Shown here piece by piece: positions 3,484-27,749 of a stretch of 33,198 nucleotides of DNA. A program made the translations under genes and the position numbers. The notes under the pieces were generated by a model. That model was given only the letters and a program-made list of their open reading frames with translations, searched no databases and was not told the DNA's origin. The stretch lies in contig JBOHQB010000074.1 of NCBI GenBank assembly GCA_050731995.1, forward strand, positions 1-33,198, written 5' to 3'. Numbering within the stretch: position 1 is the first letter of the stretch; each line of letters starts with the position of its first letter. This DNA comes from Candidatus Rokuibacteriota bacterium. GTDB taxonomy: Bacteria > Methylomirabilota > Methylomirabilia > Rokubacteriales > CSP1-6.

Positions 3484-3486
3484 GCG

Positions 3487-10020: not shown

Positions 10021-11379
10021 ATGAACCGGCGCACCGGAGGGACGTGGGACGTGGTGATCGCCGGCGGCGGCGTGGCCGGCGTATCGGTGGCCGCCGCGCT
10101 GGGCGAGTTCGGCTATCGCGTCCTGCTCGTCGAGCCGGGCCTCAACGGCGCCAAGCGGCTCGCCGGCGAGCTGATCCATCCCCCCGGTGTCAGTGACCTC
10201 GCCGACCTCGGGCTGCTGGCGCCGCTCGAGCGGATCGGCGTGGCACCGGTCCTCGGCTTCGCGGTCTCGCCGCACGCGGACGCGGCGCCCTATCTGCTCC
10301 CCTACGGCGCGATCCCCGGCGTCCGGCGCCGTGGTTTCGCGCTGGACCACGCGGTGCTCACCGTCACGCTGTTCGCCGCCGCCAAGCAACTGCCGCACGT
10401 CACGACGTGGCAGGACGCGCGCGTGTGCGACCTGGACCTGACGCCGGACGGCGCGACCGTGCTGATCGCGCGTCCGAACGGTCCGACATCCGTGCGCGCG
10501 CGGCTCGTCGTCGCGGCGGACGGCGGCGCGTCCACCGTACGCCGCCTGGCGTCCATCGCGCACACGCGCGTCCGCCTCTCGCACATGCTCGGCGTGCAGC
10601 TCCCGGGCCCCCTGCCCGAGGCGGGCTTCGGCAACGTGTTCCTCGGCGGCCCCGCCCCGGTGCTCGCGTACGCGATCGACGACGTCACGGCGCGCGTGAT
10701 GTTCGACGTCCCCGGCAACCCCGACGGCATCGCCGCCGTCCGTCGCGATCCCGCGTACCTGGCCGCCCTGCCCCGCGAGTTCCGTGAGCGCGTGCGCGCC
10801 GCCGTCCACGCCGAGCCGGGTCTCGTGTGCGCGAACTACTGCGTCGTTCCCGAGGCGGTCGCCACCGGTTGCGTGGTGCTCGTCGGCGACGCGGCCGGCT
10901 CCTGCCACCCGCTCACGGCTACGGGGCTCAGCGCCTGCACGCGCGACGCGATCCGCCTCCGGCAGGCCCTGCGCGAGGCCGACGGCGACATTCCGCTCGC
11001 GGTCCGCCGCTACGCGCGCGCCCGCGGCGGGCCGCAGCGCACCCGGGTCGCGCTCGCCGAGGCGCTCTACCGGGCCTTCGCCGACCCGTCGGACGAGATG
11101 CGGCTCCTGCGCAACGGAATCTTGAAATTCTGGCAGCGCAGTCGCCGCGGCCGTGCGGCCTCGATGGCGCTCCTCTCCACGCACGAAGGGCGCATGTCGG
11201 TCATGGCGGTGCAATACGCGCGCGTGCTGGGTTACGCGCTCACCGGGCTTGTCCGTCTCCGCGGTGACGGGCGGGCGCGCTCGCCGCTCGCGCGCGCCCG
11301 CGCCGTGATGCGGCTTACCCGCGCGGCCCTCGGCCTGCTCGCGCAGGCGTACAGGGGCCGGCGTCTCCGGCACACCTGA
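10021..11379 (+). CDS. sqmo: Squalene monooxygenase / squalene epoxidase (ERG1/SQLE family flavoprotein)
   Basis: 452 aa. DVVIAGGGVAGVSVAAAL Rossmann motif. GELIHPPG (compare eukaryotic GELLQPGG). VVAADGGASTVRR. VLVGDAAGSCHPLTATGLS (compare GDAxNMRHPLTGGGMT). Starts 1 nt after the RND stop. Confidence 0.8.
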   Translation: MNRRTGGTWDVVIAGGGVAGVSVAAALGEFGYRVLLVEPGLNGAKRLAGELIHPPGVSDLADLGLLAPLERIGVAPVLGFAVSPHADAAPYLLPYGAIPGVRRRGFALDHAVLTVTLFAAAKQLPHVTTWQDARVCDLDLTPDGATVLIARPNGPTSVRARLVVAADGGASTVRRLASIAHTRVRLSHMLGVQLPGPLPEAGFGNVFLGGPAPVLAYAIDDVTARVMFDVPGNPDGIAAVRRDPAYLAALPREFRERVRAAVHAEPGLVCANYCVVPEAVATGCVVLVGDAAGSCHPLTATGLSACTRDAIRLRQALREADGDIPLAVRRYARARGGPQRTRVALAEALYRAFADPSDEMRLLRNGILKFWQRSRRGRAASMALLSTHEGRMSVMAVQYARVLGYALTGLVRLRGDGRARSPLARARAVMRLTRAALGLLAQAYRGRRLRHT

Positions 11380-11393
11380 GCGCCCGTCTCAGG
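11375..11393. terminator. Short hairpin at the convergent operon junction (possible bidirectional terminator)
   Basis: CCTGAG (11375-11380) and CTCAGG (11388-11393) form a 6-bp stem around the 7-nt loop cgcccgt. The stem includes both stop codons (TGA 11377-11379 on plus, TGA 11391-11389 on minus). No U-tract. Confidence 0.2.
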
Positions 11394-13356
11394 CCGCCCG
11401 CGCCGTCGCGCGGTCCGGCCCGGCTTGGCGCGCATAGCGCGCGAGCGCCCAGGCCGGGAAGTAGGCCGAGTACAGCCGATAGTCCAGCATCGCAGTGCCG
11501 AAGAAAACGCCGTTGACGGAGCCGGCGGGCCATCCTCCGTTCGCCTCCTGTCGCGCGCACAGCCAGTCGATGCCCCGCTCGACCGACGCGTGGGTGGCGC
11601 CGACGACGTCGAGCAGTGCGAGCAACGCCCACGCGGTCTGCACCGGCTGGCTGAGGGCGTGCTCGACGTAGCGGTCGTGCAGACATCCCGACCAGTGCTC
11701 CCCCCAGCCGCCGTCCGGACGCTGCCGCGCGACGAGCCACTCGGCGGCGCGAACCAGGGCGAGGTCATCGGCCGCCACGCCGGCGCCGCGCAGCCCCGCG
11801 ACGAAGTGGAAGGCGCCGTACGTGAAATTGATGCCCCACGCTCCCGTGATCGCGCCGTCGACGCGCTGGCTCGCGCGGAGGAATCGAACGCCTCGCTCGA
11901 TCGCCGGCGCGACGCCCGGCACCAAGGTCGGGTCGCGCCGTCCGAGTCGCGCGAGCGCCGACACGCACGAGGCGGTGCATTCGATGTACGAGCGCTCTGT
12001 CATGCAGCGACCGAACATCTCGGACGCGTTGAGCCGCTCGAGCCACGGGCCGCCGCGGCGCGGCTCGTAAGTCCCAAAACCGCCATCGCGGTTCTGGCGG
12101 GCGAGGATGAATCGGGCCGCGAGGGCCAGCCGTGTCGCCGGCGTCCGTTCGGACTGGGGGATGACCGGCTCCGCGCTCAGCAGCGCGCTCACCGCCTCGG
12201 CGGTGCAATCGCTCACCGGCCAGCGATGGACCCCGTCGGAGAAGCACCAGCCGCCCGCGGTCGGCTCGCGGTCCTGCTCTCGCCAACGCGGCAGCTCGCT
12301 CGTGAGCTGCGTGTCGCGCAGGAATCCGTAGCCGCGCCGGACGGCCGCGGCGTGCGCCGGCTCGTCGCCCGTCGTGAGCGCGCGGAGCGCGAAGGCGGTG
12401 TCCCAGGCGTTCGAGCGGGCCCCGGCGTAGCGGATTCCGCCCGCGTCCTCCCAGCGCCAGCCTTCGAGGCCGTCCAGGCTGGCGGCCAGCGCCGGGTCGG
12501 CCGGATCGTGCGCCCACAGCGACAGGCAGTCGAGGACCGCGTTGACCGGCGACAAGCCGAGCCACCGGCTCTCGCGCTGCTCGTAGCGGATGCGATCGAG
12601 GCACGCGTCGAGCGCGCGCCGGCGCAGCCTGACGGGAGTCACGCGGTCCACGCCGGACAGCACCGACGCCGCCACGCGCAGACCGGGGCCCGGACGCACG
12701 TACAGGTCGCTCGCCGCCACGTCGTGGCGGTGGGCCGCGAAGTCGAGGGTCGCGTACGGCTCCGCGTAGAGCTCCTCGCGCAGCGCCGCGCCGAGGGGTC
12801 CGAGGTCGGCGGTGACTCGCCGCCCGTACACATAGGCCACCGCCAGATAGATGTAGCGCGTGTGGCAGTACCAGCGGGCCGGGTGGAACGGGAGGAGCCG
12901 CGGCAACGCGTAGAGCTCGGGCAGCACCGGCGTGACGCCGGCCCAGCCGTAGAGCCCGAGCAGCGCAAGCCAGAGCTTGCCCCACGTGGGGATCGCCAGC
13001 ACGCCGCCCGCCTGTCCCCGCAGCCAGCCGCGCGCGTCGGCGACGAGCGGCTCGTCGCGCTCGAGGCCGAGCAGCCGCAGCGCGACGTACACCAGCGTGG
13101 TGACGAAGACGTACCCCGCCGACTCCGGATGAAGGCCCCACGCGCCGTCGGCCGTTCGCACTCCGCGCAGGTAGCGAACGATCCCCGCACGGGTCGCCGC
13201 GCCGACCGGACGCCCGACGACGTGGCGGACGATGACGACCTGGGCCGTGATCATCGGGCACCACACCACCTCGCCCTCCCAGTCGCCGCGCGGTGACTGC
13301 AGCGTCACGAGGCGGGCGAGGGCGCTATCGCGCGCGGCGGCGGCGGCCGCGAGCAT
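11389..13356 (-). CDS. osc: Oxidosqualene cyclase (lanosterol/cycloartenol/parkeol synthase type terpene cyclase)
   Basis: The listed ORF reaches 13476, but Met41 at 13356 overlaps the upstream stop by 1 nt (TGATG), giving 655 aa. OSC-type catalytic motif WPVSDCTAEA at 12196-12222, not the SHC-type DxDDTA. Multiple QW repeats (RFLRASQRVDGAITGAWG, EWLVARQRPDGGWGE, DWLCARQEANGGWP, FILARQNRDGGFG). Confidence 0.9.
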   Translation of the reverse strand: MLAAAAAARDSALARLVTLQSPRGDWEGEVVWCPMITAQVVIVRHVVGRPVGAATRAGIVRYLRGVRTADGAWGLHPESAGYVFVTTLVYVALRLLGLERDEPLVADARGWLRGQAGGVLAIPTWGKLWLALLGLYGWAGVTPVLPELYALPRLLPFHPARWYCHTRYIYLAVAYVYGRRVTADLGPLGAALREELYAEPYATLDFAAHRHDVAASDLYVRPGPGLRVAASVLSGVDRVTPVRLRRRALDACLDRIRYEQRESRWLGLSPVNAVLDCLSLWAHDPADPALAASLDGLEGWRWEDAGGIRYAGARSNAWDTAFALRALTTGDEPAHAAAVRRGYGFLRDTQLTSELPRWREQDREPTAGGWCFSDGVHRWPVSDCTAEAVSALLSAEPVIPQSERTPATRLALAARFILARQNRDGGFGTYEPRRGGPWLERLNASEMFGRCMTERSYIECTASCVSALARLGRRDPTLVPGVAPAIERGVRFLRASQRVDGAITGAWGINFTYGAFHFVAGLRGAGVAADDLALVRAAEWLVARQRPDGGWGEHWSGCLHDRYVEHALSQPVQTAWALLALLDVVGATHASVERGIDWLCARQEANGGWPAGSVNGVFFGTAMLDYRLYSAYFPAWALARYARQAGPDRATARAA

Positions 13357-14429
13357 CAGGAGTGCGCGGGTGCGGCGCCCGCCAAATACTCCTCCCACTT
13401 CTTCACGGTGAGCTGCTGGAAGAGGCCGACCGCCGGGTTGAGGTCGGGCACCGGCCGATCGTGGTGCGTCTCCCACCCGCGCTGCTCGGCCTCCACGGCG
13501 AAGCCGTCCTGGGCGAGCAACGGGTGGATGAGGACCCGGTTGGAGATCCGGAGCACGAGCGTCATCAGCCGACGTGGGATGCGGAGTGGCGTGAGCGGGA
13601 TCCTGAGCGATTCAAAATAGAAGAGGAAAAACGTCCGGGTCGTGCTCTCGTCGATCGGCAGGAAGAAGCACCAGTGCTTGATCTTGCCGTCCGTGTTCGA
13701 CCACTGGTACGGGTACTCGTAGCAGAGATCCATCGCGTTCGTATTCACACGACGCCGGTCCACGAACAGTCCCGAGATCCGGCCGCGCCCGACGCGCGTA
13801 TCGTAGGAGACGTGGACGGCGTCGCCGACCCGCTCGCAGCGGGTGAGCCGCGCGTCCTCGAACGGCCGGTATTTGCGGTGCAGCCACGCATGGGTGAAAT
13901 CGCTCACGTTGTCGACGACCATCGAGTGGTGCGCACGCCACGTGAAGTCGAGCGGCACGCACGCCCAGCGCCCGGGGTCCTCGAGCTCCGGGATATCGGG
14001 AATCGATCGACGGTCGGCCCGCGCGGGATCGCCCGGGTAGACCCAGACGAGGCCGTAGCGCGCCTTCACGGGGTACGTGCGCAGCGTGACCTTCGGCAAC
14101 GGGCGGCCGAACAGCTCGTGAGGCACGTGCGCGAGTCGGCCGGTCCCATCGTACGCCCAGCCATGATAGGCGCACGTCAGCCGGCAGTCCTCCACGCTGC
14201 CGAGCGTCAGCTTCAGCTGACGGTGGGCGCAGCGGTTCTCGACCGCGTGGAGCGCGCCGTCTTCGTCGCGCCACAGCGCGATCGACTGCCCCCAGAACTG
14301 AGTCTCGACGACGGCGCCGGGTTGCACCGCGCGGTCGTACTCGACCGCGTACCAATAGTCCGGATGCAGGCCGGCCGCGCGGGCCTTCTCGCGCAGGTTG
14401 CGCGCCTCGGCGAACGACGGGCCGCTCAC
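13356..14429 (-). CDS. Rieske [2Fe-2S] non-heme-iron oxygenase, SdmA-like (candidate sterol C-4 methyl oxidase), paralogue 2
   Basis: The 661-aa listed ORF is an artefactual 5' extension. The GTG at 14429 overlaps the upstream stop (GTGA) and aligns with the Met start of the paralogue, giving 357 aa. Rieske motif CAHRQLKLTLGSVEDCRLTCAYHGW. Mononuclear-iron motif DNVSDFTHAWLH. Confidence 0.8.
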   Translation of the reverse strand: MSGPSFAEARNLREKARAAGLHPDYWYAVEYDRAVQPGAVVETQFWGQSIALWRDEDGALHAVENRCAHRQLKLTLGSVEDCRLTCAYHGWAYDGTGRLAHVPHELFGRPLPKVTLRTYPVKARYGLVWVYPGDPARADRRSIPDIPELEDPGRWACVPLDFTWRAHHSMVVDNVSDFTHAWLHRKYRPFEDARLTRCERVGDAVHVSYDTRVGRGRISGLFVDRRRVNTNAMDLCYEYPYQWSNTDGKIKHWCFFLPIDESTTRTFFLFYFESLRIPLTPLRIPRRLMTLVLRISNRVLIHPLLAQDGFAVEAEQRGWETHHDRPVPDLNPAVGLFQQLTVKKWEEYLAGAAPAHS

Positions 14430-15496
14430 GCCGGAACCCCGGCGGACCCGGCCCGGGCCAGGTGCGCCTCCCACTTCCGAATGGTGAGCCGGTGGAGCAG
14501 GGCGACGGCCGGATTCAGCTCGACGAGGGGCGCGTCCCAGTGGGCCTCGTAGCCGCGCTGCTCCGCTTCCAGCGCCACGCGGTCCTGATCGAGGAGCGAG
14601 CGTACGAACGGCTGGATCGCGGCGAGGACCCACCGGAGGGCCCGGTGCGGCGGCGACACCGGCAGCCCCGGCACGCGGAGCCGGTCGTAGGCCATCACGA
14701 AGAAAACGCGCGTGGTGCGGACGTCCATCGGCAGCAGAAACGTCCAGTACCTGATCTGCCCGCGGATGCCCGACCACTCGAACGCCGCCCAATGGTACGG
14801 GTACTCGAAACATATCGTCATCGGTGACGGAGCCACGTCGTGCCGCACGCGGGGCCCCACCTTCGCCTCGTAGCGCAGGAGGACGCGGTCGTCCGTGGCG
14901 TCCCAGTCGAGCAACCGCCCCGGCTGGAACGACGCGAACCTCCGGTGCAGGTGCGCGTGCGTCAGATCGCAGAGGTTGTCCATCACCATCGAGTGATGCG
15001 CGCGCCACGTGAAGTCGATCGGCACATACGCCCACGGTTCGGAGCCCTCGAGCACCGGCACCTCCGGCAGCGGGACGCGCGCGGCCAGCGTGGGGTCGCC
15101 CGGGAAGATCCAGATCAACCCGTAGCGCTCGAGGACGGGATAGTGGCGGATGTGCACGGACGGCATCGAGTGCCCGAACCGGTCGTGGGGCACGTCCACG
15201 AGCCGTCCGGCGTCGTCGTACGTCCAGCCGTGATAGGCGCAGGCCAGGCGGCAGCCCTCCACGCTGCCGAGCGAGAGCGGCAGCTGGCGATGGGCGCAGC
15301 GGTCCTCGAGCGCGTGCACGCGGCCGTCGGTATCCCGCCACAGGACGATGGCCGCGCCCCAGAACGAGGTGGCGCGGATCGCGCGCAGCGGCAGCCTGCG
15401 CTCGTATTCGACCGCATACCAGTGATTCGGATCGAGCCCGGCCGCGCGGACCTTCTGGCGCAAGCCGACGGCGTCGGCGAACGCCGGCGGCGTCAT
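14426..15496 (-). CDS. Rieske [2Fe-2S] non-heme-iron oxygenase, SdmA-like (candidate sterol C-4 methyl oxidase), paralogue 1
   Basis: The ATG at 15496 overlaps the CYP51 stop (ATGA), giving 356 aa. CAHRQLPLSLGSVEGCRLACAYHGW and DNLCDLTHAHLH motifs. Collinear with the downstream paralogue along its whole length. Confidence 0.8.
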   Translation of the reverse strand: MTPPAFADAVGLRQKVRAAGLDPNHWYAVEYERRLPLRAIRATSFWGAAIVLWRDTDGRVHALEDRCAHRQLPLSLGSVEGCRLACAYHGWTYDDAGRLVDVPHDRFGHSMPSVHIRHYPVLERYGLIWIFPGDPTLAARVPLPEVPVLEGSEPWAYVPIDFTWRAHHSMVMDNLCDLTHAHLHRRFASFQPGRLLDWDATDDRVLLRYEAKVGPRVRHDVAPSPMTICFEYPYHWAAFEWSGIRGQIRYWTFLLPMDVRTTRVFFVMAYDRLRVPGLPVSPPHRALRWVLAAIQPFVRSLLDQDRVALEAEQRGYEAHWDAPLVELNPAVALLHRLTIRKWEAHLARAGSAGVPA

Positions 15497-16881
15497 GACG
15501 GAACCGCCGTCAGCGCAGGCGCTGTCACCGTCACACGGAGGCGCCGGCGGTAGCGCACGATGCACGGTGGCCGGGGCCCGACGACGAACGTCGAGTAGTC
15601 CGGGCGGTGGCCGGTGCGCACCGGCGTGAGGTCGAAGCGCCGGAGCAGCACCGACCAGATGACCTTGATCTGCTGCTCGGCAAAGGTCGAGCCGATGCAG
15701 CGGTGGTGTCCGCCGCCGAAGCCGATCAGCGCGTGCTTCACGGCGCGATCCTCCTGCCGCCCGGGACCGAAGCGATCGGGATCGTACCGATCGGGATCGC
15801 GAAAGACCCCGGCGATTCGGTGGCCGGCGGCCGGCGAGACCATCGCCAGATCGCCAGCGGGGACGATGTACTCGCCGTACGCGATCTCGCGGAGGACCCG
15901 TCGCATGAGCATGACGAGCGGCGGATGCATCCGCTCGGCCTCCTTGATGCACCGCTCCAGCGCGACCAGCCGCCGCAGCGCCGCCAGGTCCACGATCCGC
16001 CCGTCGGGCAGCACCTCGCGCTGCTCGGCCAGCACGGCGGGCAGGTGCTCGGGGTGCTCGAGCAGCAGCAGGCCGGTCCAGACGCTCATGATCGCGCTCG
16101 TGTGCTGGCCGGCGAAGATGGTCCCGAGCAGGAGGCCCGTGATCTCGTCGTCGGAGAGCGGCCGGCCGTCGCTGTAGCGGGCGGCCATGAGCGTCTGGAG
16201 GAAGTCCTCTCCTTCGACCCCGCGTTCGCGCCGCTCAGCGATGACGCCGGCGATCAGGGCCGCCACCTGCGCCCGGGCACGGTCGCGGCGGCGGAAGGCC
16301 GGCAGCGGCAGATGCGGGTTGAAGAACGCGATCAGGTTGATGCCGCGCTCGAGGTCATGATAGAGGTGCGCGAACTCCTGCGTCACCCGCCGCCGCATCT
16401 CGTCGCCGATGAGGCATCTCGTGGCGATGAACACCGTCAGCTCGTTCATCGCCACGGCCAGGTCGATCTCTCCGGCGTCGCCCCACGTATCGGTGTACGC
16501 CTCGGTCTCCTCCTGCATGACGCGCGCGTACGTCCGCAGGCGGTCGTCGCGCAGCGCGGGGAAGAGAAAGCCCATCTGCTCGTCGAAGACCGGCGGCGTC
16601 GCATCGTAGACCACGCCACGGCCAAAGATGGGCACGGTGAACCGATAGACCTCGCGCGCGCTCAGCTGGTCCTCGGGTGCGCCGAAGAACGCCGCGTGCG
16701 CGCGCGGTCCCAGGAAGGCCGTCACCCGCGTCCCCGGAAGGCGGAACGAGAACAGGTCGCCGAATCGCGCGTGCCCGTCCCGGAGGAGGCGGGCCGGGTC
16801 GCGCCGGAGCGCCGGCGCATGGCCGAGGAGCGGCCAGCCGCCGGACAGCATTGGGGGACGCCGATTGCGATGGGCGCTCAC
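15493..16881 (-). CDS. cyp51: Cytochrome P450 sterol 14-alpha-demethylase (CYP51 family)
   Basis: 462 aa. CYP51 signatures are present: FGRGVVYDA (B'-C region), helix I FAGQHTS, ExxR (EAER) and heme-Cys loop FGGGHHRCIG. ATGA overlap with the upstream SDR stop. Confidence 0.9.
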   Translation of the reverse strand: MSAHRNRRPPMLSGGWPLLGHAPALRRDPARLLRDGHARFGDLFSFRLPGTRVTAFLGPRAHAAFFGAPEDQLSAREVYRFTVPIFGRGVVYDATPPVFDEQMGFLFPALRDDRLRTYARVMQEETEAYTDTWGDAGEIDLAVAMNELTVFIATRCLIGDEMRRRVTQEFAHLYHDLERGINLIAFFNPHLPLPAFRRRDRARAQVAALIAGVIAERRERGVEGEDFLQTLMAARYSDGRPLSDDEITGLLLGTIFAGQHTSAIMSVWTGLLLLEHPEHLPAVLAEQREVLPDGRIVDLAALRRLVALERCIKEAERMHPPLVMLMRRVLREIAYGEYIVPAGDLAMVSPAAGHRIAGVFRDPDRYDPDRFGPGRQEDRAVKHALIGFGGGHHRCIGSTFAEQQIKVIWSVLLRRFDLTPVRTGHRPDYSTFVVGPRPPCIVRYRRRLRVTVTAPALTAVPS

Positions 16882-17876
16882 GCCCGCGGACCGATCTTGC
16901 CGCGCCTCACGAAGTCCTCGTACGCATCGCGCACGGCATCCTCGACGGAGGTCGGCTGGTACCCGAGCTCCGTGCGCGCCTTGGTGATATCGGCGCGTCG
17001 GTGCATTCGGAGGATTCGGACCGCGCCAGGCGTGAAGCGCGGCTCCACATCAGGGGCGAGTCGGCGCACGAAGAAGTCGAGCATCTCGGCCAGACCGGCC
17101 ATCAGGGGCGGCGGCACCCGCAACCGCGGCCGGGGCCGCCCGGTGACACGCTCGTACATCGCCATCAGCTCGTCGACCGTCTTGAACTCGGTCGAGAAGA
17201 TGTATTTCTGGCCGCTTCGCCCCTTGTCCATCGCCAGCAGGTGCCCCTGAACGATGTCGCGCGCGGCGACGAACTCGAAGCCGCCCGGGACATACGCGCG
17301 CAGTCGTCCGCGCGCGAAGTCGAGGAGCAGCTGGCCCATCCGCGACGGCTTGAAGTCGTGCGGGCCCAGGATGGCGCACGAGGTCGCGATGACGACGTCG
17401 AGACCGTCCACGACGGCCTTGAGGCATTCGTGCTCCACCGCCACCTTGCTGCGCTGGTAGGGCAGCAGCGGCGCGAACGGATCGACCGGCACCGTTTCGT
17501 CGCTCGGCCGGAGCGGATCGTGGCCGACCGCGCTGAAGGAGCCGGTAACGACGACGCGCTCGACCCCCGCGTCGAGCGACGCGCGGAGCAGATGACGCGT
17601 GCCGAGCACGTTGCAGGCGTAGATCTCTTTCTGCTGGCCTTCGGCGCTCGAGACCTTGGCCGCGCAGTGGTAGACGCGCTCGCAGCCGCGGACCGCAGCC
17701 CGCGTCTCACCCGCGTCGCGAAGATCGCCCCAGACGGTCTCGACGTCGAGGCCGGCCAGCGCCTCGACGGAGGCGTGAGATCGTTCGAGAACCCTGACCT
17801 CCTGGCTCTCGTCGAGAAGGCGTCGGACCAGGTTCGCGCCGAGATGCCCACTGCCGCCCGTCACGAGCACGCGCAT
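16878..17876 (-). CDS. NAD(P)-dependent epimerase/dehydratase / 3-beta-hydroxysteroid dehydrogenase family protein (SdmB-like, candidate C-4 decarboxylase/3-ketoreductase partner)
   Basis: 332 aa. VLVTGGSGHLGANLV Rossmann motif and catalytic YQRSK (YxxxK). Extended-SDR length. First gene of a five-gene overlap-coupled operon. Confidence 0.8.
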   Translation of the reverse strand: MRVLVTGGSGHLGANLVRRLLDESQEVRVLERSHASVEALAGLDVETVWGDLRDAGETRAAVRGCERVYHCAAKVSSAEGQQKEIYACNVLGTRHLLRASLDAGVERVVVTGSFSAVGHDPLRPSDETVPVDPFAPLLPYQRSKVAVEHECLKAVVDGLDVVIATSCAILGPHDFKPSRMGQLLLDFARGRLRAYVPGGFEFVAARDIVQGHLLAMDKGRSGQKYIFSTEFKTVDELMAMYERVTGRPRPRLRVPPPLMAGLAEMLDFFVRRLAPDVEPRFTPGAVRILRMHRRADITKARTELGYQPTSVEDAVRDAYEDFVRRGKIGPRA

Positions 17877-17884
17877 GGGCTCAC

Positions 17885-17913
17885 AGAATGCACCGGCGCG
17901 CGCTCGGACTCAA
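17885..17913 (-). promoter_or_regulatory. Weak candidate promoter for the SDR-CYP51-Rieske-Rieske-OSC operon
   Basis: On the minus strand, TTGAGT (17913-17908), a 17-nt spacer, CATTCT (17890-17885), then 8 nt to the ATG at 17876. No SD is visible. Both hexamers match the consensus poorly. Confidence 0.2.
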
Positions 17914-17930
17914 CGGCCGTGTCCGGCCTC

Positions 17931-17939
17931 TGCTAGAGT
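17931..17939 (+). promoter_or_regulatory. Extended -10-like element TGcTAGAGT on the plus strand inside the 371-nt gap
   Basis: Same TGnTAGAsT form as at 2685 and 22220. It is followed 8 nt later by an ATG (17948) that opens only a 13-codon ORF. It could instead drive the 18052 ORF with a leader of about 100 nt. Confidence 0.2.
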
Positions 17940-18051
17940 GGGGCTCGATGTTCGGCCGCGCTGTCCGCCGTCGCCGAGACTTCCGTTGAGGCTTCACGAG
18001 CGCTCCTCGTCGCCGGGCACGAGGACCCGGGGCGTATCGACCGGGCGAGCG

Positions 18052-18240
18052 ATGCTCCAGAAGGCCGCCGCCGAAAGCGCGCACCCGGACGTGCTGGTCG
18101 AGCTCGCGCGCGCCTGGTTTCGCACCGGCGACTTCCGGGCACGCGCGGAGGGCGAGCGACTCACCGCGTACGAGCGCGGGAGCGAGGCGGCCCGGCGCGC
18201 GATCGCGGCGGACCCACACAGCGAGGCGCTCCCCGACTGA
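18052..18240 (+). CDS. Orphan 62-aa ORF (helical, TPR-like fragment?); possible gene remnant
   Basis: MLQKAAAESAHPDVLVELARAWFRTGDF...: G/C dominates codon position 3, so it looks coding. It lies on the opposite strand to all neighbours, and its stop is 7 nt from the GGR-like stop. The upstream part of listed ORF 17875..18240 is Arg/Pro-rich junk. Confidence 0.3.
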   Translation: MLQKAAAESAHPDVLVELARAWFRTGDFRARAEGERLTAYERGSEAARRAIAADPHSEALPD

Positions 18241-18247
18241 GTCGGCG

Positions 18248-19528
18248 TCACAGGCGCTGCGGCTCGGTCACGGGGACGGGCCCGCGCCACCACAGTCGAA
18301 TCATCTCGCCCAGGATCGGGAGCGCCACGCGCGGCCTCAGGAATGTGCGCTTCGGACGCGCGCCGGTCATGGCCTCCGCCCACTCGAGCAGGAATTCGGT
18401 GCCGCGCCGGCGCATGAGCGCCGCACAGCCGTCGAGAAAGGCGGGATAGCGCGCGGAGGCCGCCGCCATCGCCCAGGACCAGCGGAAGTCCCACCCGAAC
18501 GACGCCATCCAGCGATCCTGATACCGCTGGAGAAACGCCGCGCTGAGGTCGTGGGCCTCGAGCGCCTCGTCGAGTGTCTGGGCGGCGATCTCGCCTCCAT
18601 CCATCGCGTACTGGATGCCCTCACCCGTCAGCGGGTCGATGTGACCGGCGGCGTCGCCGATGACGAGCATGTGGTCGCCGACGCTCTGCGGCACGCCGCC
18701 GAGACGGAGCGGCGCCGCGCGCATCGGTGCCAGACGCGCGCGAGGACCGAGAGCCCGGTTGACGTACGGGTCGCCTCGCACGATCTTGTCGTGGAGCCGC
18801 TTGAGGTCGCGAAGCCCCGCCTGGCCGCCGGGAATCACGTAGCAGCACAGGTTCAGCTCTCCGCCGGCCTCCCGGAACAGCACGCAGTATCCGGGCAGAA
18901 GCTCGCGTGGATAGAACATGACGCCGTCCGAAGCGAAGTCCGTCGTGCCGGCCTCGACGTACGCGCGGCTGCACACGCCGTCGGGCGCCGTCGTCACGAC
19001 ACCGAGTGAGCGCGCGAGACGCGCGAGAGCGCCGTCCGCCGTCACCAGCGCCCGGGCCTCGTACGTCGTGGCCGGCTGCGTCGCGCAGCGCACAGTCCAC
19101 ACGCCCGAGCCCGGAGCGAAGTCGGCGCCGGCGACCGGTGAATCTTCAACGAGCGTCGCACCGGCGGAGGCCGCTGCGCGCGCCAAGCGCACATCGAGCG
19201 CGACGCGCTTGATCGCGATCACGAGCGGGCGTCGCCCGTCCTCCACCGAGCTGCCGATGTAGGCGACTCCGCGCGGACTGACGAAGCCGCCGATCTCGGC
19301 CCAATGGCCTTCGCCCGCGGCGAGCACGTCGGCCAGCACCCCCATCCGCTCGAGGTGGACCTGCGCCCGTCCGGTGACGGCGTCGCCGCAGAGCTTGTCC
19401 CGCGGGAAGCGCTCACGCTCCAGGAGCAAAACGCGCCGGCCACGGCCGGCGAGATAGTACGCGCACGTGGAGCCGGCGGGGCCGGCGCCGACGATACAGA
19501 CATCCCACGGCGACGCGGGGGCGACCAT
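18248..19528 (-). CDS. FAD-dependent oxidoreductase, geranylgeranyl reductase (GGR) family
   Basis: WDVCIVGAGPAGSTCAYYLA Rossmann motif. RERFPRDKLCGDAV (GGR-type Cys). GDAAGHIDPLTGEGIQYAM. An AGGA SD lies 5 nt before the ATG at 19528. An in-frame GTG at 19531 is an alternative start. Confidence 0.8.
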   Translation of the reverse strand: MVAPASPWDVCIVGAGPAGSTCAYYLAGRGRRVLLLERERFPRDKLCGDAVTGRAQVHLERMGVLADVLAAGEGHWAEIGGFVSPRGVAYIGSSVEDGRRPLVIAIKRVALDVRLARAAASAGATLVEDSPVAGADFAPGSGVWTVRCATQPATTYEARALVTADGALARLARSLGVVTTAPDGVCSRAYVEAGTTDFASDGVMFYPRELLPGYCVLFREAGGELNLCCYVIPGGQAGLRDLKRLHDKIVRGDPYVNRALGPRARLAPMRAAPLRLGGVPQSVGDHMLVIGDAAGHIDPLTGEGIQYAMDGGEIAAQTLDEALEAHDLSAAFLQRYQDRWMASFGWDFRWSWAMAAASARYPAFLDGCAALMRRRGTEFLLEWAEAMTGARPKRTFLRPRVALPILGEMIRLWWRGPVPVTEPQRL

Positions 19529-19573
19529 CACGTTCCTGTCTAACGTATCCGGCGTGCGCTGTCCATGACGTCC

Positions 19574-20584
19574 TCAGTAGAGGAACGGAACCATCCGCCA
19601 GCGGACACGCTCACAGTACGCGGCCCACAGCGCGCCGTACTTTTGGCGGCAGCGACGGTCGTCGCGCCGGGCGCGGTGGAGGAAGAAGAAGGTCAGCCAG
19701 AGCGCGGGCAGGTACGGCACCGGTGACGCAAGCCCGCACGGCAGCGTCCACGCATAGTAGAGGATCAGCTCGCCGGTGTAGTTGAGCTTGCGGCCGATAC
19801 CCCAGAACCCCGAGACGAGCAGCCGGCCGCCGATCGTCTCCGGCGGCCGCCGCCAGACCGGCGCGGACGGGTCGAGCTTGAACTGGTGCTTCTGCGCGTT
19901 GGCGCCCCGGAAGAGCCAGAAGCCGAACACGTACATGGCGATGAGCCCGACGGCGGCCGGGAGCGACGGCGGGCTCACCCGGTCGACAAGATACCATCCG
20001 GGCAGGCTGTAGAAGAACGGTACCAGGACCCAGTCGCCCCAGACGAGGGCCCAGCCGAAGCGCTCCTCCAGGACATCCCAGGTGAAGCGCATCCCGTGCT
20101 CGAAGTGGAAGTAGTTCGCGACGTAGAGCAGCGTGAACGCCTCGAACAGCAGCATGGGAGTCGCCAGGCGGCCGTGGCGCTCCCACTGGGCGAAGGCGAA
20201 GCCGAGGTTGACGAGGCCGAGCGCGATCAGCGACGGGCGGTAGGCGAACATTTTGAGATCGACTCCGCGCCACACCGGAGCACGCTCCACGCCATAGAAG
20301 AAATCGAGGGCCGCCTCGCGAAGGCCGCCCTCGAGGAGGCCGCGTCCCTGGGCCCACCGGCCGCACGCGTAGAGGAGGCCGGCCGACGCGAGGGCAAGCA
20401 CGTTGGCGGCGACGAGCAGCGCGCCGAAGTGACGAATGATAGCCGACGGCGACCAGATCCCGACGGCGACGGTCGCGGCGACGGCGGCGGCCGCCACGCC
20501 GAGCAGTCGGAGCCCGCTCAGCCCGTAGCCCGAGGCCACGAAGAGCGCGCCGACGAATCCCACCACCGCCAGCGCGGCGATCAT
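19574..20584 (-). CDS. ERG4/ERG24-family sterol reductase (most plausibly Delta14-sterol reductase)
   Basis: The N-terminal 118 aa of the listed 454-aa ORF overlap the EBP-like gene out of frame and look non-coding. The ATG at 20584 overlaps the EBP-like stop (ATGA), giving 336 aa. Family signatures GIGRKLNYTGELILYYAW and FFLHRARRDDRRCRQKYGALWAAYCERVRWRMVPFLY are present. Multi-TM. Confidence 0.85.
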   Translation of the reverse strand: MIAALAVVGFVGALFVASGYGLSGLRLLGVAAAAVAATVAVGIWSPSAIIRHFGALLVAANVLALASAGLLYACGRWAQGRGLLEGGLREAALDFFYGVERAPVWRGVDLKMFAYRPSLIALGLVNLGFAFAQWERHGRLATPMLLFEAFTLLYVANYFHFEHGMRFTWDVLEERFGWALVWGDWVLVPFFYSLPGWYLVDRVSPPSLPAAVGLIAMYVFGFWLFRGANAQKHQFKLDPSAPVWRRPPETIGGRLLVSGFWGIGRKLNYTGELILYYAWTLPCGLASPVPYLPALWLTFFFLHRARRDDRRCRQKYGALWAAYCERVRWRMVPFLY

Positions 20585-21090
20585 GCTCGCGGACTCGCGA
20601 AGCGTCGGACGATCGCCGTGAAGGCGTCCCAGGCCAGCCAGGCGTGCGCGGCGAGCCACGGCAGCGTCAGGCCGTAGAAAAGCGTGAACCCCGTCGCGGT
20701 GCGCGCGCGCATCCCCGCGTAGCCGCTGAGATGACCGGCCAGCAGGTAGAGGATGCACGAGTACGCGACGTAGGCGCCGAGCGCCAGCTGCAGCGCGTGG
20801 CGCCAGGGCGCACCGCGCAGGATGCCAGCGATGAGGACGATGTTCACGAGCGTCGTCACGAAGACGTTGAACCCTTCTTGCGCGAGCGACCAGGGCGAGG
20901 CGATCCAGAACCGGTCCGCGTCGGCATAAAGGGCCCACAGGTCCGCGGCCCAGTCGGAGCCCACGAGTTGAGGCAGATCACGCCCACGCCGGACCAGCGC
21001 CCAGTCGAGCGTCACGTTGAAAGCGGAGAAGAACAGGAGCAGCCCGATACTGACGCGATCCCGCGTAGCGAGCGAGGCCGCGGCCGGCAT
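20581..21090 (-). CDS. EBP/EXPERA-family small membrane protein (candidate sterol Delta8-Delta7 isomerase)
   Basis: 169 aa from the ATG at 21090 (in-frame GTG at 21093). By eye it is collinear with human EBP: LWALYADADRFWIASPWSLAQEGFNVFV...APWRHALQLALGAYVAYSCILYLL against [28 protein letters not shown]...[24 protein letters not shown]. It lacks the first TM of the eukaryotic protein. Confidence 0.6.
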   Translation of the reverse strand: MPAAASLATRDRVSIGLLLFFSAFNVTLDWALVRRGRDLPQLVGSDWAADLWALYADADRFWIASPWSLAQEGFNVFVTTLVNIVLIAGILRGAPWRHALQLALGAYVAYSCILYLLAGHLSGYAGMRARTATGFTLFYGLTLPWLAAHAWLAWDAFTAIVRRFASPRA

Positions 21091-21097
21091 CACGCCG

Positions 21098-22198
21098 TCA
21101 GTCCGAGCGGCCGCGTGCGGCGATCTCCCACACGGCCTCGACCCCGTCGCCCCGGACGGCGTAGATCCGATCGTAGAGGTTGATCGTCGGATCGCAGTGG
21201 GGCGCGAAGAACTCGATCCGCTCGCCGAGCCGCGGCGCGCGCGAGGGATCGGTGATCGTGAGCCGGCCGTGCTCGTCGCCCGCAAAGGCGTACTCGATCC
21301 CCGGACGCTCGACCGACTCGGGTGGGAACGGCTTGTCGGTGGAGAACGCTTTCAGGCCCGCGTCCACCATCGCGCGGTCGCGCGTGGGGATGCTGACGAC
21401 CGTGGCGACGACGGTCAGCGCCATCTCGAAGCCGGTGAGCCACTGCCCGTCGCGTCCGCCGATACGCCGATAGTCGAGGTCCATGACGCAGTAGGACCCG
21501 CTCTGGAGCTCGGTGAGCGCGGCGAGCTCGACGTCGATGTCCCAGGTGCCCGTGGAGCCGCCGGCGACGACCTCGACGGGCAGTCCCGCCGCCTCGAAGA
21601 GGCGCCGGGTCTCCGCGAGCGGCGCCATCGCCACGCGCGACGCCTCACGACGCTGCTCCCAGCCGATGACGTGGGCGCAGTGCCCCGCGTACGCCTGCAG
21701 CCCGCGCAGCCGGAGCGCCTTGCGCGCGACGACGGCGCGGCCCAGCGCCACCGCGGGCTCGCCGGGGTCGACGCCGGTCCGCCGGTTGCCGACGTCGAGA
21801 TCCACCAGCACGTCGATCGTCACGGCGTCGCGCTCGGCGGCGGCCGCCAGCGCCGCGACGTTCTCGGCGTGGTCCACGACGACCATCGTGTCGGGCGCCT
21901 CGGCGACGAGGCGCGTGAGGCGGCGGAGCGCCTGCGGGGCCACGACCTCGGTCGTGATCAGAAGACCCCGGATCCTGGCGCGCGCCATCACCTCCGCCTC
22001 GCCGAGCTTCGCGCACGCGACGCCGAGGGCGCCGGCGGCGATCTGGCGGCGCGCGATCTCCGGGCACTTGTGGGTCTTGGCGTGCGGCCGGAGATTCTTG
22101 CCGGCGCGGCGCACGTGCGCGGCCATCGCGGCCAGATTCCGCTCGAAGCGGTCGAGATCGAGCAGCAGCGCCGGGGTCGGAATCTCGTCGCGGGTCAT
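21098..22198 (-). CDS. DSD1-family PLP-dependent enzyme (D-threonine aldolase / D-serine dehydratase-like, alanine-racemase-fold)
   Basis: 366 aa. PTPALLLDLDRFERNL start block. PLP-lysine motif RPHAKTHK. C-terminal GDEHGRL...PHCDPTINLYD block. Its stop is 7 nt before the EBP-like start. Confidence 0.8.
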   Translation of the reverse strand: MTRDEIPTPALLLDLDRFERNLAAMAAHVRRAGKNLRPHAKTHKCPEIARRQIAAGALGVACAKLGEAEVMARARIRGLLITTEVVAPQALRRLTRLVAEAPDTMVVVDHAENVAALAAAAERDAVTIDVLVDLDVGNRRTGVDPGEPAVALGRAVVARKALRLRGLQAYAGHCAHVIGWEQRREASRVAMAPLAETRRLFEAAGLPVEVVAGGSTGTWDIDVELAALTELQSGSYCVMDLDYRRIGGRDGQWLTGFEMALTVVATVVSIPTRDRAMVDAGLKAFSTDKPFPPESVERPGIEYAFAGDEHGRLTITDPSRAPRLGERIEFFAPHCDPTINLYDRIYAVRGDGVEAVWEIAARGRSD

Positions 22199-22210
22199 CG
22201 GAGCGCGCCC

Positions 22211-22219
22211 ACTCTACCA
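22211..22219 (-). promoter_or_regulatory. Extended -10-like element TGgTAGAGT for the minus-strand PLP/EBP/ERG24 operon
   Basis: The minus strand reads TGGTAGAGT, then 12 nt, then the ATG at 22198. No SD, so the leader would be very short. Confidence 0.3.
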
Positions 22220-22228
22220 TGCTAGACT
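22220..22228 (+). promoter_or_regulatory. Extended -10-like element TGcTAGACT for the aminotransferase gene (leaderless-type spacing)
   Basis: tgcTAGACT directly abuts the minus-strand element and lies 9 nt before the ATG at 22238. No SD. Confidence 0.3.
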
Positions 22229-22237
22229 CTCGCCACC

Positions 22238-23398
22238 ATGCCGGGGCGGTCGTTCCTTCAGATCCCGGGCCCCACGCTGGTCCCCGAGCGCATCGTGCGC
22301 GCGATGTCGCAGCCGGTGATCGACCACCGGGGACCGAAGTTCGCCGCGCTCGTGGGTGACTGCCTCGACGGTCTCAAGCGGATCTTCAAGACGGAGCGCG
22401 GCCACGTCGTGCTCTACCCGGGCTCGGGCACCGGCGCGTGGGAGGCGGCGATCGTCAACACCCTCTCCCCCGGCGACCGCGTGCTGGCGTGCGTCAACGG
22501 CCACTTCTCGACGGGGTTCGCGAAGACGGCCGCGGCGTACGGCCTCGAGGTGGACCGTCTCGAGGTGGACTACGGCGATGGCGTTCCGGCCGACGCGCTC
22601 GCGACGCGCCTCGCCGCCGACACCGCGCACGAGATCCGTGCCGTGCTCGTCGTCCACAACGAGACCTCGACCGGGGTGACGTCGGATATTGCCGCCGTGC
22701 GCGCCGCGCTCGACCGCGCGCAGCACCCCGCGCTGCTGCTCGTGGACACCGTGTCGTCGCTTGCGTCCATCGACGTCCGTCACGACGAGTGGGGCGCCGA
22801 CGTCACGCTGACCGGCCCGCAGAAGGGGCTGATGCTCCCGCCCGGCATGGCGATCCTCGCCGTGAGCGAGCGCGCCGTGAGCGCCGGCGAGAAAGCGCGG
22901 TGCCCCCGCGCCTATTGGGACTGGCGGCCCGTGCTGGAGCGGAACCGGCGCGGCGAGTACCCCTACACGCCCGCGACGACGCTCCTCTTCGGACTGCGCG
23001 AGGCGATCGCCATGCTCGAGGAGGAAGGGCTCGCGAACGTCTTTGCGCGCCACGCGCGTCTCGGCGAGGCGTGCCGGCGCGCGGTCGTCGCGTGGGGTCT
23101 CGGCATCCTCTGCCGCAACCCCGCGGAGCGCTCGAACACGCTCACGGCGGTCGTGATGCCGCCGGGGATGGACTCCGACGCGCTCATCCAGCACGCGCAC
23201 CGCCGGCTCGACATGTCGCTCGGCATCGGGCTCGGCGCCGTGCGGGGCAAGGTCTTCCGCATCGGCCACCTCGGCAGCCTCAACGAGCTCGAGCTCCTCG
23301 GCGGACTCGCGGGCCTCGAGATGATGCTGAAGGAGTTCGGGATCCCGGTGCGTCTCGGCGCGGGTGTCGCCGCGGCCGAGGGCTCGCTGCTCGGCTGA
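22238..23398 (+). CDS. Class-V aminotransferase (serine-glyoxylate / alanine-glyoxylate / serine-pyruvate type)
   Basis: 386 aa. FLQIPGPTLVPERI start, HNETSTGV block, and PLP-lysine block LTGPQKGLMLPPGMAIL. Confidence 0.85.
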   Translation: MPGRSFLQIPGPTLVPERIVRAMSQPVIDHRGPKFAALVGDCLDGLKRIFKTERGHVVLYPGSGTGAWEAAIVNTLSPGDRVLACVNGHFSTGFAKTAAAYGLEVDRLEVDYGDGVPADALATRLAADTAHEIRAVLVVHNETSTGVTSDIAAVRAALDRAQHPALLLVDTVSSLASIDVRHDEWGADVTLTGPQKGLMLPPGMAILAVSERAVSAGEKARCPRAYWDWRPVLERNRRGEYPYTPATTLLFGLREAIAMLEEEGLANVFARHARLGEACRRAVVAWGLGILCRNPAERSNTLTAVVMPPGMDSDALIQHAHRRLDMSLGIGLGAVRGKVFRIGHLGSLNELELLGGLAGLEMMLKEFGIPVRLGAGVAAAEGSLLG

Positions 23399-26482: not shown

Positions 26483-26542
26483 CCGGTTGCCGGGGCGAGG
26501 ACCCCGTGCTAGAAACGCTCATTCCCCGCGAGGAGGCGGACG

Positions 26543-27748: not shown

Positions 27749-27749
27749 C

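Follow-up and report, generated by a model that had tools for sequence, protein, structure and literature searches.

The 33.2-kb stretch of DNA considered here (33,198 nucleotides; hereafter, the window) is a complete metagenomic contig from a Candidatus Rokuibacteriota bacterium and carries a dense cluster of genes predicted to function in sterol synthesis. Its plus-strand arm consists of genes for a putative outer-membrane protein (5133-6458), a LolA-like protein (6469-7257), an RND transporter (7254-10019) and a squalene monooxygenase (SQMO; 10021-11379). The minus-strand arm comprises, in this order, genes for an EBP-like membrane protein (20581-21093), an ERG4/ERG24-family reductase (19574-20584), a GGR-family flavoprotein (18248-19531), the SDR SdmB (16878-17876), the cytochrome P450 CYP51 (15493-16881), a paralog of SdmA named Rsk2 (14426-15496), the Rieske oxygenase SdmA (13356-14429) and an oxidosqualene cyclase (OSC; 11389-13356). 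The two arms converge at 11379/11389, with nine intact genes tightly packed between 10021 and 21093. An earlier note, made from the letters of the sequence (the original prediction), had described a dense convergent sterol cluster at 10021-21090. All the families that it named are indeed present at the places given, and the sterol genes start where it put them, but the last of them ends at 21093, and the functional unit reaches upstream to 5133, including the adjacent transport genes, which had been missed.

Several features of the locus point to a functional gene set. The window has a GC content of about 70%, so that raw lists of open reading frames (ORFs) are full of spurious frames, and coding frames were picked by third-position GC. 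Every ORF in the two arms of the cluster is intact. Junctions of the ATGA/GTGA type, in which start and stop codons overlap, connect the EBP-like and ERG4/24 genes, sdmB and CYP51, CYP51 and Rsk2 as well as Rsk2 and sdmA, and the junction between sdmA and the OSC gene is likewise overlapping or abutting. On the plus strand, the stop codon of the RND gene (10019) abuts the start of the SQMO gene (10021). In comparison with their orthologs in L001, a 1.84-Mb Rokubacteria contig, all 12 genes, including the three transport genes, show dN/dS values of 0.16-0.32 and are thus under purifying selection. Each family assignment is based either on a score above the curated cut-off or on a best match to a solved structure of the expected enzyme, and the combination of this gene set with a conserved gene order is far above chance expectation. 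We consider it likely, with a probability of roughly 0.8, that the locus represents a working sterol synthesis cluster with four supported steps, namely epoxidation, cyclization and the demethylation of C-14 and C-4. The nature of the end product and the role of the cluster in export are less certain than this four-step synthesis.

The SQMO (10021-11379, plus strand) scores 74.9 bits against PF08491 (cut-off 20.1) and has its best match in the Protein Data Bank (PDB) in human squalene monooxygenase, SQLE (6C6N; 86.8 bits, E = 1.6e-23), followed by a UbiH-type enzyme with only 46.8 bits, in agreement with its earlier annotation as a squalene epoxidase. Its gene, the last of the four-gene plus-strand operon, is 74-75% identical at the protein level in three related loci (L001, L002 and L008), where it is retained as the convergent neighbor of the OSC gene. 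The OSC (11389-13356, minus strand) reaches 869.8 bits with model TIGR03463, above its cut-off of 851, but only 283 bits with the squalene-hopene cyclase model TIGR01507 (cut-off 431), and it matches human lanosterol synthase (1W6K) with 435 bits, compared with 181 bits for a squalene-hopene cyclase (1GSZ). Its VSDCTAE motif, on which the call of an oxidosqualene-type cyclase had been based, aligns with the VSDCTAE motif of the human enzyme, including the catalytic Asp residue (human D455). The residues at human positions 381, 449 and 453 are Ala, His and Val, respectively. Among the bacteria tested by Wei et al. (2016), V453 was fully correlated with the production of lanosterol. Ile at this position would indicate cycloartenol, and the OSC is predicted to be of the lanosterol type. 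The third enzyme, CYP51 (15493-16881, minus strand), is a putative sterol 14-alpha-demethylase that is not fused to ferredoxin. All of its 57 best PDB matches are CYP51 proteins (372-202 bits), with the next P450 at 159 bits, and it carries the signatures FGRGVVYD, AGQHTS and GGHHRCIG; a Rokubacteria CYP51 has been included in the work of Lamb et al. (PMC7947880). The motifs quoted in the original prediction (GELIHPPG, GDAAGSCHPLTATG, VSDCTAE, FGRGVVYD, AGQHTS and HRCIG) are all found in the translations, and the two assignments that it had regarded as decisive stand, with scores that place the cyclase among the oxidosqualene cyclases and the P450 in the CYP51 family.

The removal of C-4 methyl groups had been attributed to two Rieske oxygenases and an SDR of the 3Beta_HSD type, matching the bacterial SdmA/SdmB pair. 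A pair of this type is present, but the second Rieske protein is a divergent paralog that falls outside the SdmA clade. For both Rieske genes, the SdmA model NF052579 is by far the best match, and both proteins contain the CxH/CxxH Rieske motif and the His-His-Asp iron motif, at 51% identity to each other. The product of the first gene (13356-14429, minus strand; 402 bits) groups with other Rokubacteria proteins inside the main SdmA clade in a neighbor-joining tree (all trees reported here were computed from BLOSUM distances without bootstraps) and shares 64% identity with the Rieske protein encoded in the Calothrix sterol cluster, suggesting that it is the SdmA ortholog and a Rieske-type sterol C-4 methyl oxidase. 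The putative NAD(P)-dependent C-4 decarboxylase/3-ketoreductase SdmB (16878-17876, minus strand) contains the Pfam domains Epimerase and 3Beta_HSD and has its top match in NF052578 (340 bits; HpnA model, 263 bits). It is 55-87% identical to the SDRs of other sterol clusters and 63% identical to that of the Calothrix cluster; a look-up of its exact sequence yielded no entry.

Rsk2 (14426-15496, minus strand; 314 bits with NF052579) forms a clade with its counterparts in L001, L043 and L005 outside all SdmA orthologs and is, therefore, classified as a paralog, although the deep placement of this clade could be the result of long-branch attraction. Many members of the clade, including the orthologs in L001 (about 7990-8904) and L043 (7906-8919) as well as the proteins P0180, P0186, P0204, P0207, P0216 and P0219, have lost the whole [2Fe-2S]-binding segment, with an invariant mononuclear-iron motif. 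Rieske oxygenases relay electrons between subunits, from the cluster of one to the iron of its neighbor, so that a paralog lacking the cluster could function solely as part of a mixed oligomer, for which SdmA would be the simplest partner. This suggests that the Rieske-less orthologs form obligate mixed oligomers with SdmA. Rsk2 of the window itself still retains its [2Fe-2S] cluster ligands. It could act as a second C-4 methyl oxidase or catalyze another sterol oxidation. Plants employ two sterol methyl oxidases (SMOs). In bacteria, SdmAB alone can fully demethylate C-4, as shown for Calothrix and reported for S. amylolyticus and M. rosea (PMC10202945; PMC12004948).

The three remaining tailoring genes belong to the families originally named, but their proposed functions had been stated with too much confidence. 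The ERG4/ERG24-family protein (19574-20584, minus strand) is a short sterol reductase that matches PF01222 (E = 6e-63, 213.5 bits) over profile positions 108-432 only. Its best PDB match is MaSR1 (4QUV), a Δ14 reductase of solved structure (216 bits, 37% identity), again limited to MaSR1 residues 109-427, so that about 100 N-terminal residues are missing relative to MaSR1. Its ATG start codon overlaps with the stop codon of the EBP-like gene (ATGA). In a neighbor-joining tree that did not include DHCR7 or ERG4 references, the protein belongs to a group (group II) that also contains its counterparts in L001, L043, L005, L055, L065 and Polyangia metagenome-assembled genomes (MAGs). MaSR1 groups with the genes of reduced Rokubacteria clusters (see below) and with a second, full-length paralog of 451 residues that is encoded between the GGR gene and sdmB in L043 (4227-5580, minus strand) and L005 (2133-3053, minus strand) and is 35% identical to the window protein and 44% identical to MaSR1. 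Nevertheless, since CYP51 leaves a Δ14 bond and an NTF2-type 8,14-Bsr gene is lacking, Δ14 reduction would be the most economical role, and we infer that the protein is a Δ14 reductase. Thus, the family assignment stands, and the Δ14 step is more weakly supported than had been assumed. A role as the enzyme generating an 8(14) bond was rejected, because the enzyme known to do so in the M. capsulatus pathway, 8,14-Bsr, is an NTF2-fold protein (PMC13277303), and no scanned ORF in the window fits this description.

The EBP-like protein (20581-21093, minus strand; 169 amino acids) is predicted to be a four-helix membrane protein with the EBP/EXPERA fold. It scores 30.1 bits against PF05241 (cut-off 25.7), its family profile aligns with that of human EBP at an hhalign probability of 96.5%, and the sole PDB match of this profile is 6OHT (E = 7e-13). 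Consistent with this result, an AF2 model of the protein (pLDDT 92) has its best Foldseek match in human EBP (8W0R; TM score 0.82, compared with 0.62 for the sigma-2 receptor). However, the proton donor proposed for human EBP is His76, and the human enzyme loses its activity upon H76A or E80A substitution (PMC6549186). The window protein shares with human EBP the fold and the equivalents of D108, E122 and W196, but it has four instead of five helices and Asn, Asp and Thr in place of His76, Glu80 and Asn193, and it thus does not carry the complete catalytic set of His76, Glu80, Glu122 and Trp196. The Asn residue at position 76 is nearly invariant in the family. His120 and His149 are invariant and are conceivable substitutes for His76. 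Homologs are rare, with 51 clusters among 5.8 billion proteins and 248 representatives among 1.84 billion, and fall into three residue types: canonical H/E proteins of 215-240 residues, which keep all catalytic residues, short bacterial proteins of the A/E type, which adjoin ERG4/24 or form fusions with it, and, as in the window, short proteins of the N/D type. His76 is missing in all short bacterial EBP-like proteins examined. Four in-frame fusions join an EBP domain to an SdmA-like Rieske oxygenase, with N/D-type domains in L055 (about 15600-17250, plus strand) and P0311, an A/D-type domain in P0310 and a domain in L065 (14637-15001, minus strand; gene product of 548 amino acids). Other fusions involve ERG4/24 (P0312) and a P450 (P0323). 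L055 and L065 also contain a second EBP-like protein, of the A/E type, beside ERG4/24, which the window lacks. Given the loss of His76 and the replacement of Glu80 by Asp, the Δ8-to-Δ7 shift attributed to this protein in the original prediction is not secured, although the fold is. The protein could catalyze the isomerization by a modified mechanism, or it could bind sterols in the membrane as a partner of the oxygenases. The literature searched contained no description of bacterial EBP-fold proteins lacking this histidine or of fusions involving them. Tandem double-EBP proteins were also detected (P0293, P0294, P0307, P0320 and in L020).

The GGR-family flavoprotein (18248-19531, minus strand; 165 bits with TIGR02032, cut-off 158.8), here termed type A, is a candidate sterol side-chain reductase. 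A GGR homolog from the sterol cluster of Sandaracinus amylolyticus, Bsr, reduces C-24 of zymosterol and desmosterol, and its homologs carry a YxWxFP motif and an active-site Cys; Table S2 of the same study lists identities to Bsr of 51% for Lichenifustis and 24% for Calothrix NIES-4105 (PMC12004948). The window protein is of the expected family but not of the Bsr type. It is only 21-30% identical to the Bsr-clade proteins of Sandaracinus (L037, L041), Lichenifustis (L025) and Rokubacteria (L003, L004) and, in place of their Y[GA]W[LM]FPE sequence, reads GYCVLFRE and thus lacks YxWxFP, ruling out that it is a Bsr ortholog. Its KLCGDA sequence aligns with the active-site Cys of TaGGR (3OZ2), and this Cys is kept. 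The homologs examined form two groups: a Bsr-like one from Sandaracinus, Lichenifustis, the reduced Rokubacteria loci, a Myxococcales MAG and Fibrobacterota MAGs, and the type-A one (GYCxxFRE) from the window, L001, L043, L055, L020, Calothrix, Nostoc, Planctomycetes, Bryobacteraceae and Myxococcales. Identities between the groups (19-30%) are no higher than those of either group to archaeal GGR. Type-A proteins are, nonetheless, strongly linked to sterols by their genomic context. The window protein is 58% identical to the product of a gene within the published Calothrix sterol cluster. Type-A genes were sampled in five other places, namely Calothrix and, chosen from the list of matches, MAGs of Planctomycetes and Bryobacteraceae and two more contigs, and each time the gene was surrounded by sterol genes. 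Because in each of the five contexts outside Rokubacteria the gene directly adjoins one for a CMAS-type or sterol methyltransferase, its substrate may well be the sterol side chain. Co-localization and the GGR fold support a function like that of Bsr, not membership in the Bsr group. The positions concerned are 11326-12204 in L062, 11461-12363 in L064, 2631-3599 in L065, 11283-12323 in L066 and 11281-12156 in L067. No methyltransferase gene is found beside the GGR gene in the window and its two closest relatives.

To place the locus, the cyclase was used as a query in a scan of species-representative genomes, and 61 loci of relatives were fetched and searched by tblastn with all window proteins. 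The best OSC matches all derive from Rokubacteria/Methylomirabilota MAGs (63-76% identity), with at most 59% identity for Myxococcales and 45-46% for Sandaracinus MAGs. Judged by sequence, the closest relatives of the locus are thus found among Candidatus Rokubacteria/Methylomirabilota MAGs, not in Myxococcota. A myxobacterial origin, which the GC content of about 70% and the published Sandaracinus cluster might suggest, was rejected on these grounds. Gene order is identical in L001 and L043/L040, at amino-acid identities of 67-87%, and reads EBP, ERG24, GGR, gap, SdmB, CYP51, Rsk2, SdmA, OSC, SQMO, RND, LolA-like and outer-membrane protein. Both flanks of the window also match Rokubacteria MAGs (72-81% identity). 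Most other Rokubacteria loci fetched (L003, L004, L033, L047 and L056) contain a reduced form of the cluster, with SdmB, CYP51, a single SdmA, OSC, SQMO, a different ERG4/24 and a different GGR protein but without an EBP-like gene and a second Rieske gene. The window can thus be described as a core module joined by an accessory module that consists of the genes for the EBP-like protein, the group-II ERG4/24 protein, the type-A GGR protein and Rsk2. These accessory genes occur together in the window, L001, L043, L055 (an alphaproteobacterial MAG) and L065 (a Bryobacteraceae contig) and in part in L005 and L020 (an Aliidongia MAG).

The plus-strand genes preceding the SQMO gene are apparently co-transcribed with it. 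The first of them (5133-6458) encodes a putative outer-membrane protein with an apparent signal peptide that weakly resembles DUF1302 (PF06980, 21.7 bits, below the cut-off); it shows a dN/dS value of 0.32 and is kept beside sterol genes in the Rokubacteria loci L001, L002, L047 and L056 (53-72% identity). It is followed by a gene for a LolA-like/DUF1329-like candidate periplasmic lipid carrier (6469-7257; PF17131 LolA_like, E = 1.6e-55; dN/dS 0.25), which adjoins the RND gene in L001, L002, L004, L008 and L047. The third protein (7254-10019), an RND transporter of the HAE3/MMPL type with the Pfam domains MMPL, Patched SSD, Sterol-sensing and cNMP_binding, is a candidate sterol exporter. It is 62-79% identical in five Rokubacteria loci, adjoining the SQMO gene, and the whole trio lies beside this gene in at least five Rokubacteria loci. 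From this context, we infer that the trio would move sterol to the outer membrane. The RND protein scores 210 bits with the HAE3 model TIGR00921, and the only RND structure matched is that of HpnN. Scores of 24 bits with the BstA model (cut-off 1400) and 95.8 bits with the HpnN model rule out that it is an ortholog of either protein. A preprint on hopanoid transport contains nothing on LolA or DUF1302 partners (10.1101/2025.07.29.667474). The C-terminal cyclic-nucleotide-binding domain of the RND protein (residues 765-905, approximately) is kept in its Rokubacteria orthologs and implies that the presumed lipid export may be under second-messenger control.

Based on evidence from both families and residues, SQMO would convert squalene to 2,3-oxidosqualene, which the OSC, with its Val453, would cyclize to lanosterol. 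CYP51 would then remove the 14-alpha methyl group, and SdmA and SdmB at least one C-4 methyl group. For the subsequent steps, family membership and context suggest that the group-II ERG4/24 protein may reduce the Δ14 bond left by CYP51, that Rsk2 may help to take off the second C-4 methyl group, probably in a mixed oligomer with SdmA, that the type-A GGR protein may saturate a double bond in the side chain and that the EBP-like protein may shift the Δ8 bond to Δ7 or else present the sterol to a Rieske oxygenase. The outer-membrane protein, the LolA-like protein and the RND transporter might finally deliver the product to the outer membrane, and cyclic nucleotides may control this transport. 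The most likely product is a sterol of the zymostenol or lathosterol type (cholest-8- or -7-en-3-beta-ol) or its 4-methyl form. The initial suggestion, a 14-desmethyl, C-4 demethylated Δ7/Δ8 sterol whose side chain may be saturated, is still the best prediction available. No steps toward Δ5 sterols are encoded in the window. As noted before, genes for a C-5 desaturase (ERG3), a DHCR7-type enzyme (a second ERG4/24 protein), a sterol methyltransferase and squalene synthase are absent from it, as is HpnCDE, according to Pfam scans of the other called ORFs. However, HpnCDE or Sqs as well as SHC homologs have been reported for Ca. Rokubacteria in a phylogenomic survey (PMC7306690), making a supply of squalene plausible.

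How the accessory genes contribute to this pathway can be viewed in different ways. In the conventional scheme, ERG4/24 acts as the Δ14 reductase, the EBP-like protein as an isomerase that works with altered catalytic residues, the GGR protein as the C-24 reductase and both Rieske proteins as C-4 oxidases, together yielding lathosterol (cholest-7-en-3-beta-ol). The similarity of the EBP-like protein to human EBP rather than the sigma-2 receptor, the conservation of three active-site residues, the lack of an ERG2-type isomerase in the window, which leaves this protein as the sole isomerase candidate, and its adjacency to ERG4/24, which fits consecutive steps, all favor this scheme, as does the proven C-24 reduction by a GGR-family enzyme in S. 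amylolyticus. It is difficult to reconcile, though, with the general absence of His76 from the short bacterial proteins and with the placement of the GGR and ERG4/24 proteins in clades other than those of Bsr and MaSR1; moreover, the second, A/E-type protein beside ERG4/24 in L055 and L065 may be the actual isomerase, and the window does not contain it. We therefore regard the scheme as possible but short of an even chance. Alternatively, SQMO, OSC, CYP51, SdmA and SdmB could form a core that by itself produces a 14-desmethyl, 4-(mono)methyl or 4-desmethyl Δ8 sterol, with the accessory genes acting as a separate module, in which the EBP-like protein is no isomerase but a membrane-embedded adaptor that binds sterol and passes it to the Rieske oxygenase and Rsk2 is catalytic in an SdmA/Rsk2 oligomer, carrying out the second C-4 oxidation or else a ring oxidation or desaturation. 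Such an adaptor would resemble ERG28, which is part of the eukaryotic C-4 demethylation complex. This division is suggested by the joint occurrence of the four accessory genes and their joint absence from the five reduced loci, by the missing proton-donor His and by the Rieske-fused EBP domains of the N/D (L055, P0311) and A/D (P0310) types as well as the EBP-Rieske fusion of L065. The Rieske-less Rsk2 orthologs with their intact iron site also indicate that a partner subunit supplies the electrons. Yet D108, E122 and W196 are conserved, Asp80 could still act as a base, and the window gene is translationally coupled to ERG4/24, not Rsk2; in addition, the fusions to ERG4/24 and a P450 may mean that fusion merely mirrors operon neighborhood, and some of the fusions in metagenome assemblies could be frameshift artifacts. 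We thus consider this alternative tentative, with the odds leaning clearly against it. An arrangement uniting a His-less EBP-fold sterol adaptor for Rieske oxygenases, an Rsk2-SdmA mixed oligomer, side-chain reduction by a GGR protein unrelated to Bsr and second-messenger-controlled export by the RND, LolA-like and outer-membrane proteins would represent a form of bacterial sterol tailoring that has not been described before, but it is unlikely to be correct in all its parts.

A more radical possibility is that the cluster does not support de novo sterol synthesis at all but modifies environmental sterols or triterpenoids, or that its cyclase makes a non-sterol triterpenoid, for instance of the arborane type. 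The OSC family does include arborane synthases, as described in the survey mentioned above (PMC7306690), the RND/LolA-like system could in principle import its substrate, and squalene synthase is not encoded in the window. However, the cluster contains intact and conserved genes for both SQMO and OSC, V453 is what would be expected of a lanosterol synthase, and the substrates for which CYP51, SdmAB and ERG4/24 are specific are 14-methyl and 4-methyl sterols. Together with the HpnCDE/Sqs homologs reported for the lineage, which argue against a lack of squalene, this makes the explanation highly improbable. The interpretation of the locus as a working sterol synthesis cluster, for its part, has to contend with several observations that weigh against it. 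Both Rieske proteins and SdmB remain below the equivalog cut-offs of 600 bits of NF052579 (402 and 314 bits) and NF052578 (340 bits), which were set on methanotroph sequences. Neither ferredoxin nor ferredoxin reductase nor squalene synthase was found among the scanned ORFs of the window. The GGR protein diverges from the Bsr clade in identity and motif, the EBP-like protein has lost His76 and Glu80, and MaSR1 lies outside the group of the ERG4/24 protein; the MaSR1-like second paralog is not present in the window, which has a 370-bp gap at the corresponding position between the GGR gene and sdmB. As the RND protein is not an ortholog of BstA or HpnN, sterol remains only a candidate for its substrate, and a conserved gene for a secreted TPR protein has decayed in the window (see below). 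Finally, we know of no lipid or enzyme data for the Rokubacteria lineage.

Clusters of this kind and most of the enzymes involved have already been described, and the original claim that a single locus with so many tailoring steps is unusual was overstated, given the published clusters of Calothrix NIES-4105 (PMC10202945) and Sandaracinus amylolyticus (PMC12004948) and the osc neighborhoods reported for Rokubacteria in 2020 (PMC7306690); the three tailoring genes of the window do, however, differ from the forms tested so far. In Calothrix sp. NIES-4105/4071 (locus L062; Lee, Wei & Welander, 2023), SQMO, OSC, CYP51, SdmA and SdmB are likewise encoded in one locus, together with an ERG4/24 fragment, an EBP-like gene, several Rieske oxygenases and the type-A GGR protein, and SdmAB remove both C-4 methyl groups (PMC10202945). 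Only the Calothrix cluster contains a squalene synthase, an ERG2-type isomerase, a CMAS-type methyltransferase beside the GGR gene, KshA_C-type Rieske genes and an FAD_binding_4/ALO gene, whereas the tandem SdmA paralog and the adjoining operon for the RND, LolA-like and outer-membrane proteins are specific to the window, which also derives from a different phylum. S. amylolyticus (Lee & Welander, 2025) shares with the window an arrangement mostly in one cluster, the replacement of ERG25/26/27 by SdmAB and a GGR-family flavoprotein, and its side-chain saturation is an intermediate step (PMC12004948). However, Bsr (about 370 amino acids, with YxWxFP) belongs to the other GGR clade, the cluster genes of Sandaracinus and Lichenifustis being 21-28% identical to the window GGR gene, and S. 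amylolyticus possesses eukaryote-like ring-desaturation genes and makes cholesterol, whereas the window lacks C-5 desaturase and DHCR7 and its OSC is only 45-46% identical to those of Sandaracinus MAGs.

In Methylococcus capsulatus (PMC10942540; PMC13277303), as proposed here, CYP51, the Rieske protein SdmA and the SDR SdmB act at C-14 and C-4, and an RND-family inner-membrane transporter with periplasmic and outer-membrane partners is encoded beside the sterol genes. In contrast to the window, its CYP51 is fused to ferredoxin, and it has an NTF2-type 8,14-Bsr in place of an ERG4/24 reductase. The two transporters are not orthologous (24 bits against the BstA cut-off of 1400), only that of the window carries a cyclic-nucleotide-binding domain, and the LolA-like and DUF1302-like partners contrast with a BstB-type binding protein and the T-component BstC. 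For Ca. Rokubacteria themselves, Santana-Molina et al. (2020) reported osc and sqmo together with ERG4/24, ERG2, ERG11, Rieske and Rossmann-fold genes; according to its main text, this phylogenomic survey does not include a residue-level or subfamily analysis (PMC7306690). In the literature searched, we found no description of the extended Rokubacteria form with the type-A GGR protein, the N/D-type EBP-like protein, the SdmA paralog and the transport operon.

The locus by itself does not change the overall picture. It does, however, add another phylum that could leave 'eukaryotic-looking' steranes and thus bears on the reading of sterane biomarkers and on the debate over whether sterol synthesis originated in bacteria. 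The lipids of Rokubacteria, an abundant group of uncultured bacteria in soil, have to our knowledge never been measured. In addition, the cluster offers candidates for three gaps: a second clade of GGR-type sterol reductases, a role for histidine-less EBP-fold proteins and a sterol export system other than BstABC.

Between the GGR gene and sdmB, the window retains the remnant of a secreted TPR protein (17973-18225, plus strand), detected by tblastn with the L001 and L043 proteins. It is frameshifted and truncated, with only residues 25-111, approximately (about 85 codons), left in two frames. The protein, of about 260 amino acids, is intact at the same place in six Rokubacteria loci (L001, L043, L003, L047, L033 and L049), for example at 4732-5517 (minus strand) in L001 and 3078-3857 (minus strand) in L043. 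It matches Pfam TPR_19 and, faintly, TAtT, the family of the sterol-binding protein BstC, and its PDB matches are generic TPR proteins that do not include BstC. It would thus be no more than a candidate homolog of BstC.

On the far side of the EBP-like gene, the sterol cluster is flanked by a D-serine-dehydratase-like/alanine-racemase-N gene and a class V aminotransferase gene (21098-23398). The same two genes are kept in reduced-type Rokubacteria loci (L047, 1340-3655; L033, 4522-5616) at 78-81% identity, which probably reflects plain synteny. A methyltransferase gene at 2701-3483 was considered as a source of a sterol methyltransferase but rejected, as its product is a UbiE/MenG-type Methyltransf_11 protein without a CMAS or Sterol_MT_C domain. 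Approximately 5 kb from the sterol genes, a plus-strand run of genes of the beta-oxidation type (25643-30806) encodes a MaoC-like hydratase, two adjacent acyl-CoA dehydrogenases, a family III CoA-transferase and an enoyl-CoA hydratase. In actinobacteria, the combination of paired acyl-CoA dehydrogenases with MaoC hydratases typically serves the degradation of steroid side chains. At the end of the window (31818-33197, minus strand), an ORF that extends beyond its boundary, so that the N-terminal end is cut off, encodes a large signaling-type protein with an AAA_16 ATPase domain. By eye, the stretch ahead of this domain resembles part of a nucleotide cyclase domain, and the protein is possibly relevant to the cyclic-nucleotide-binding RND transporter.

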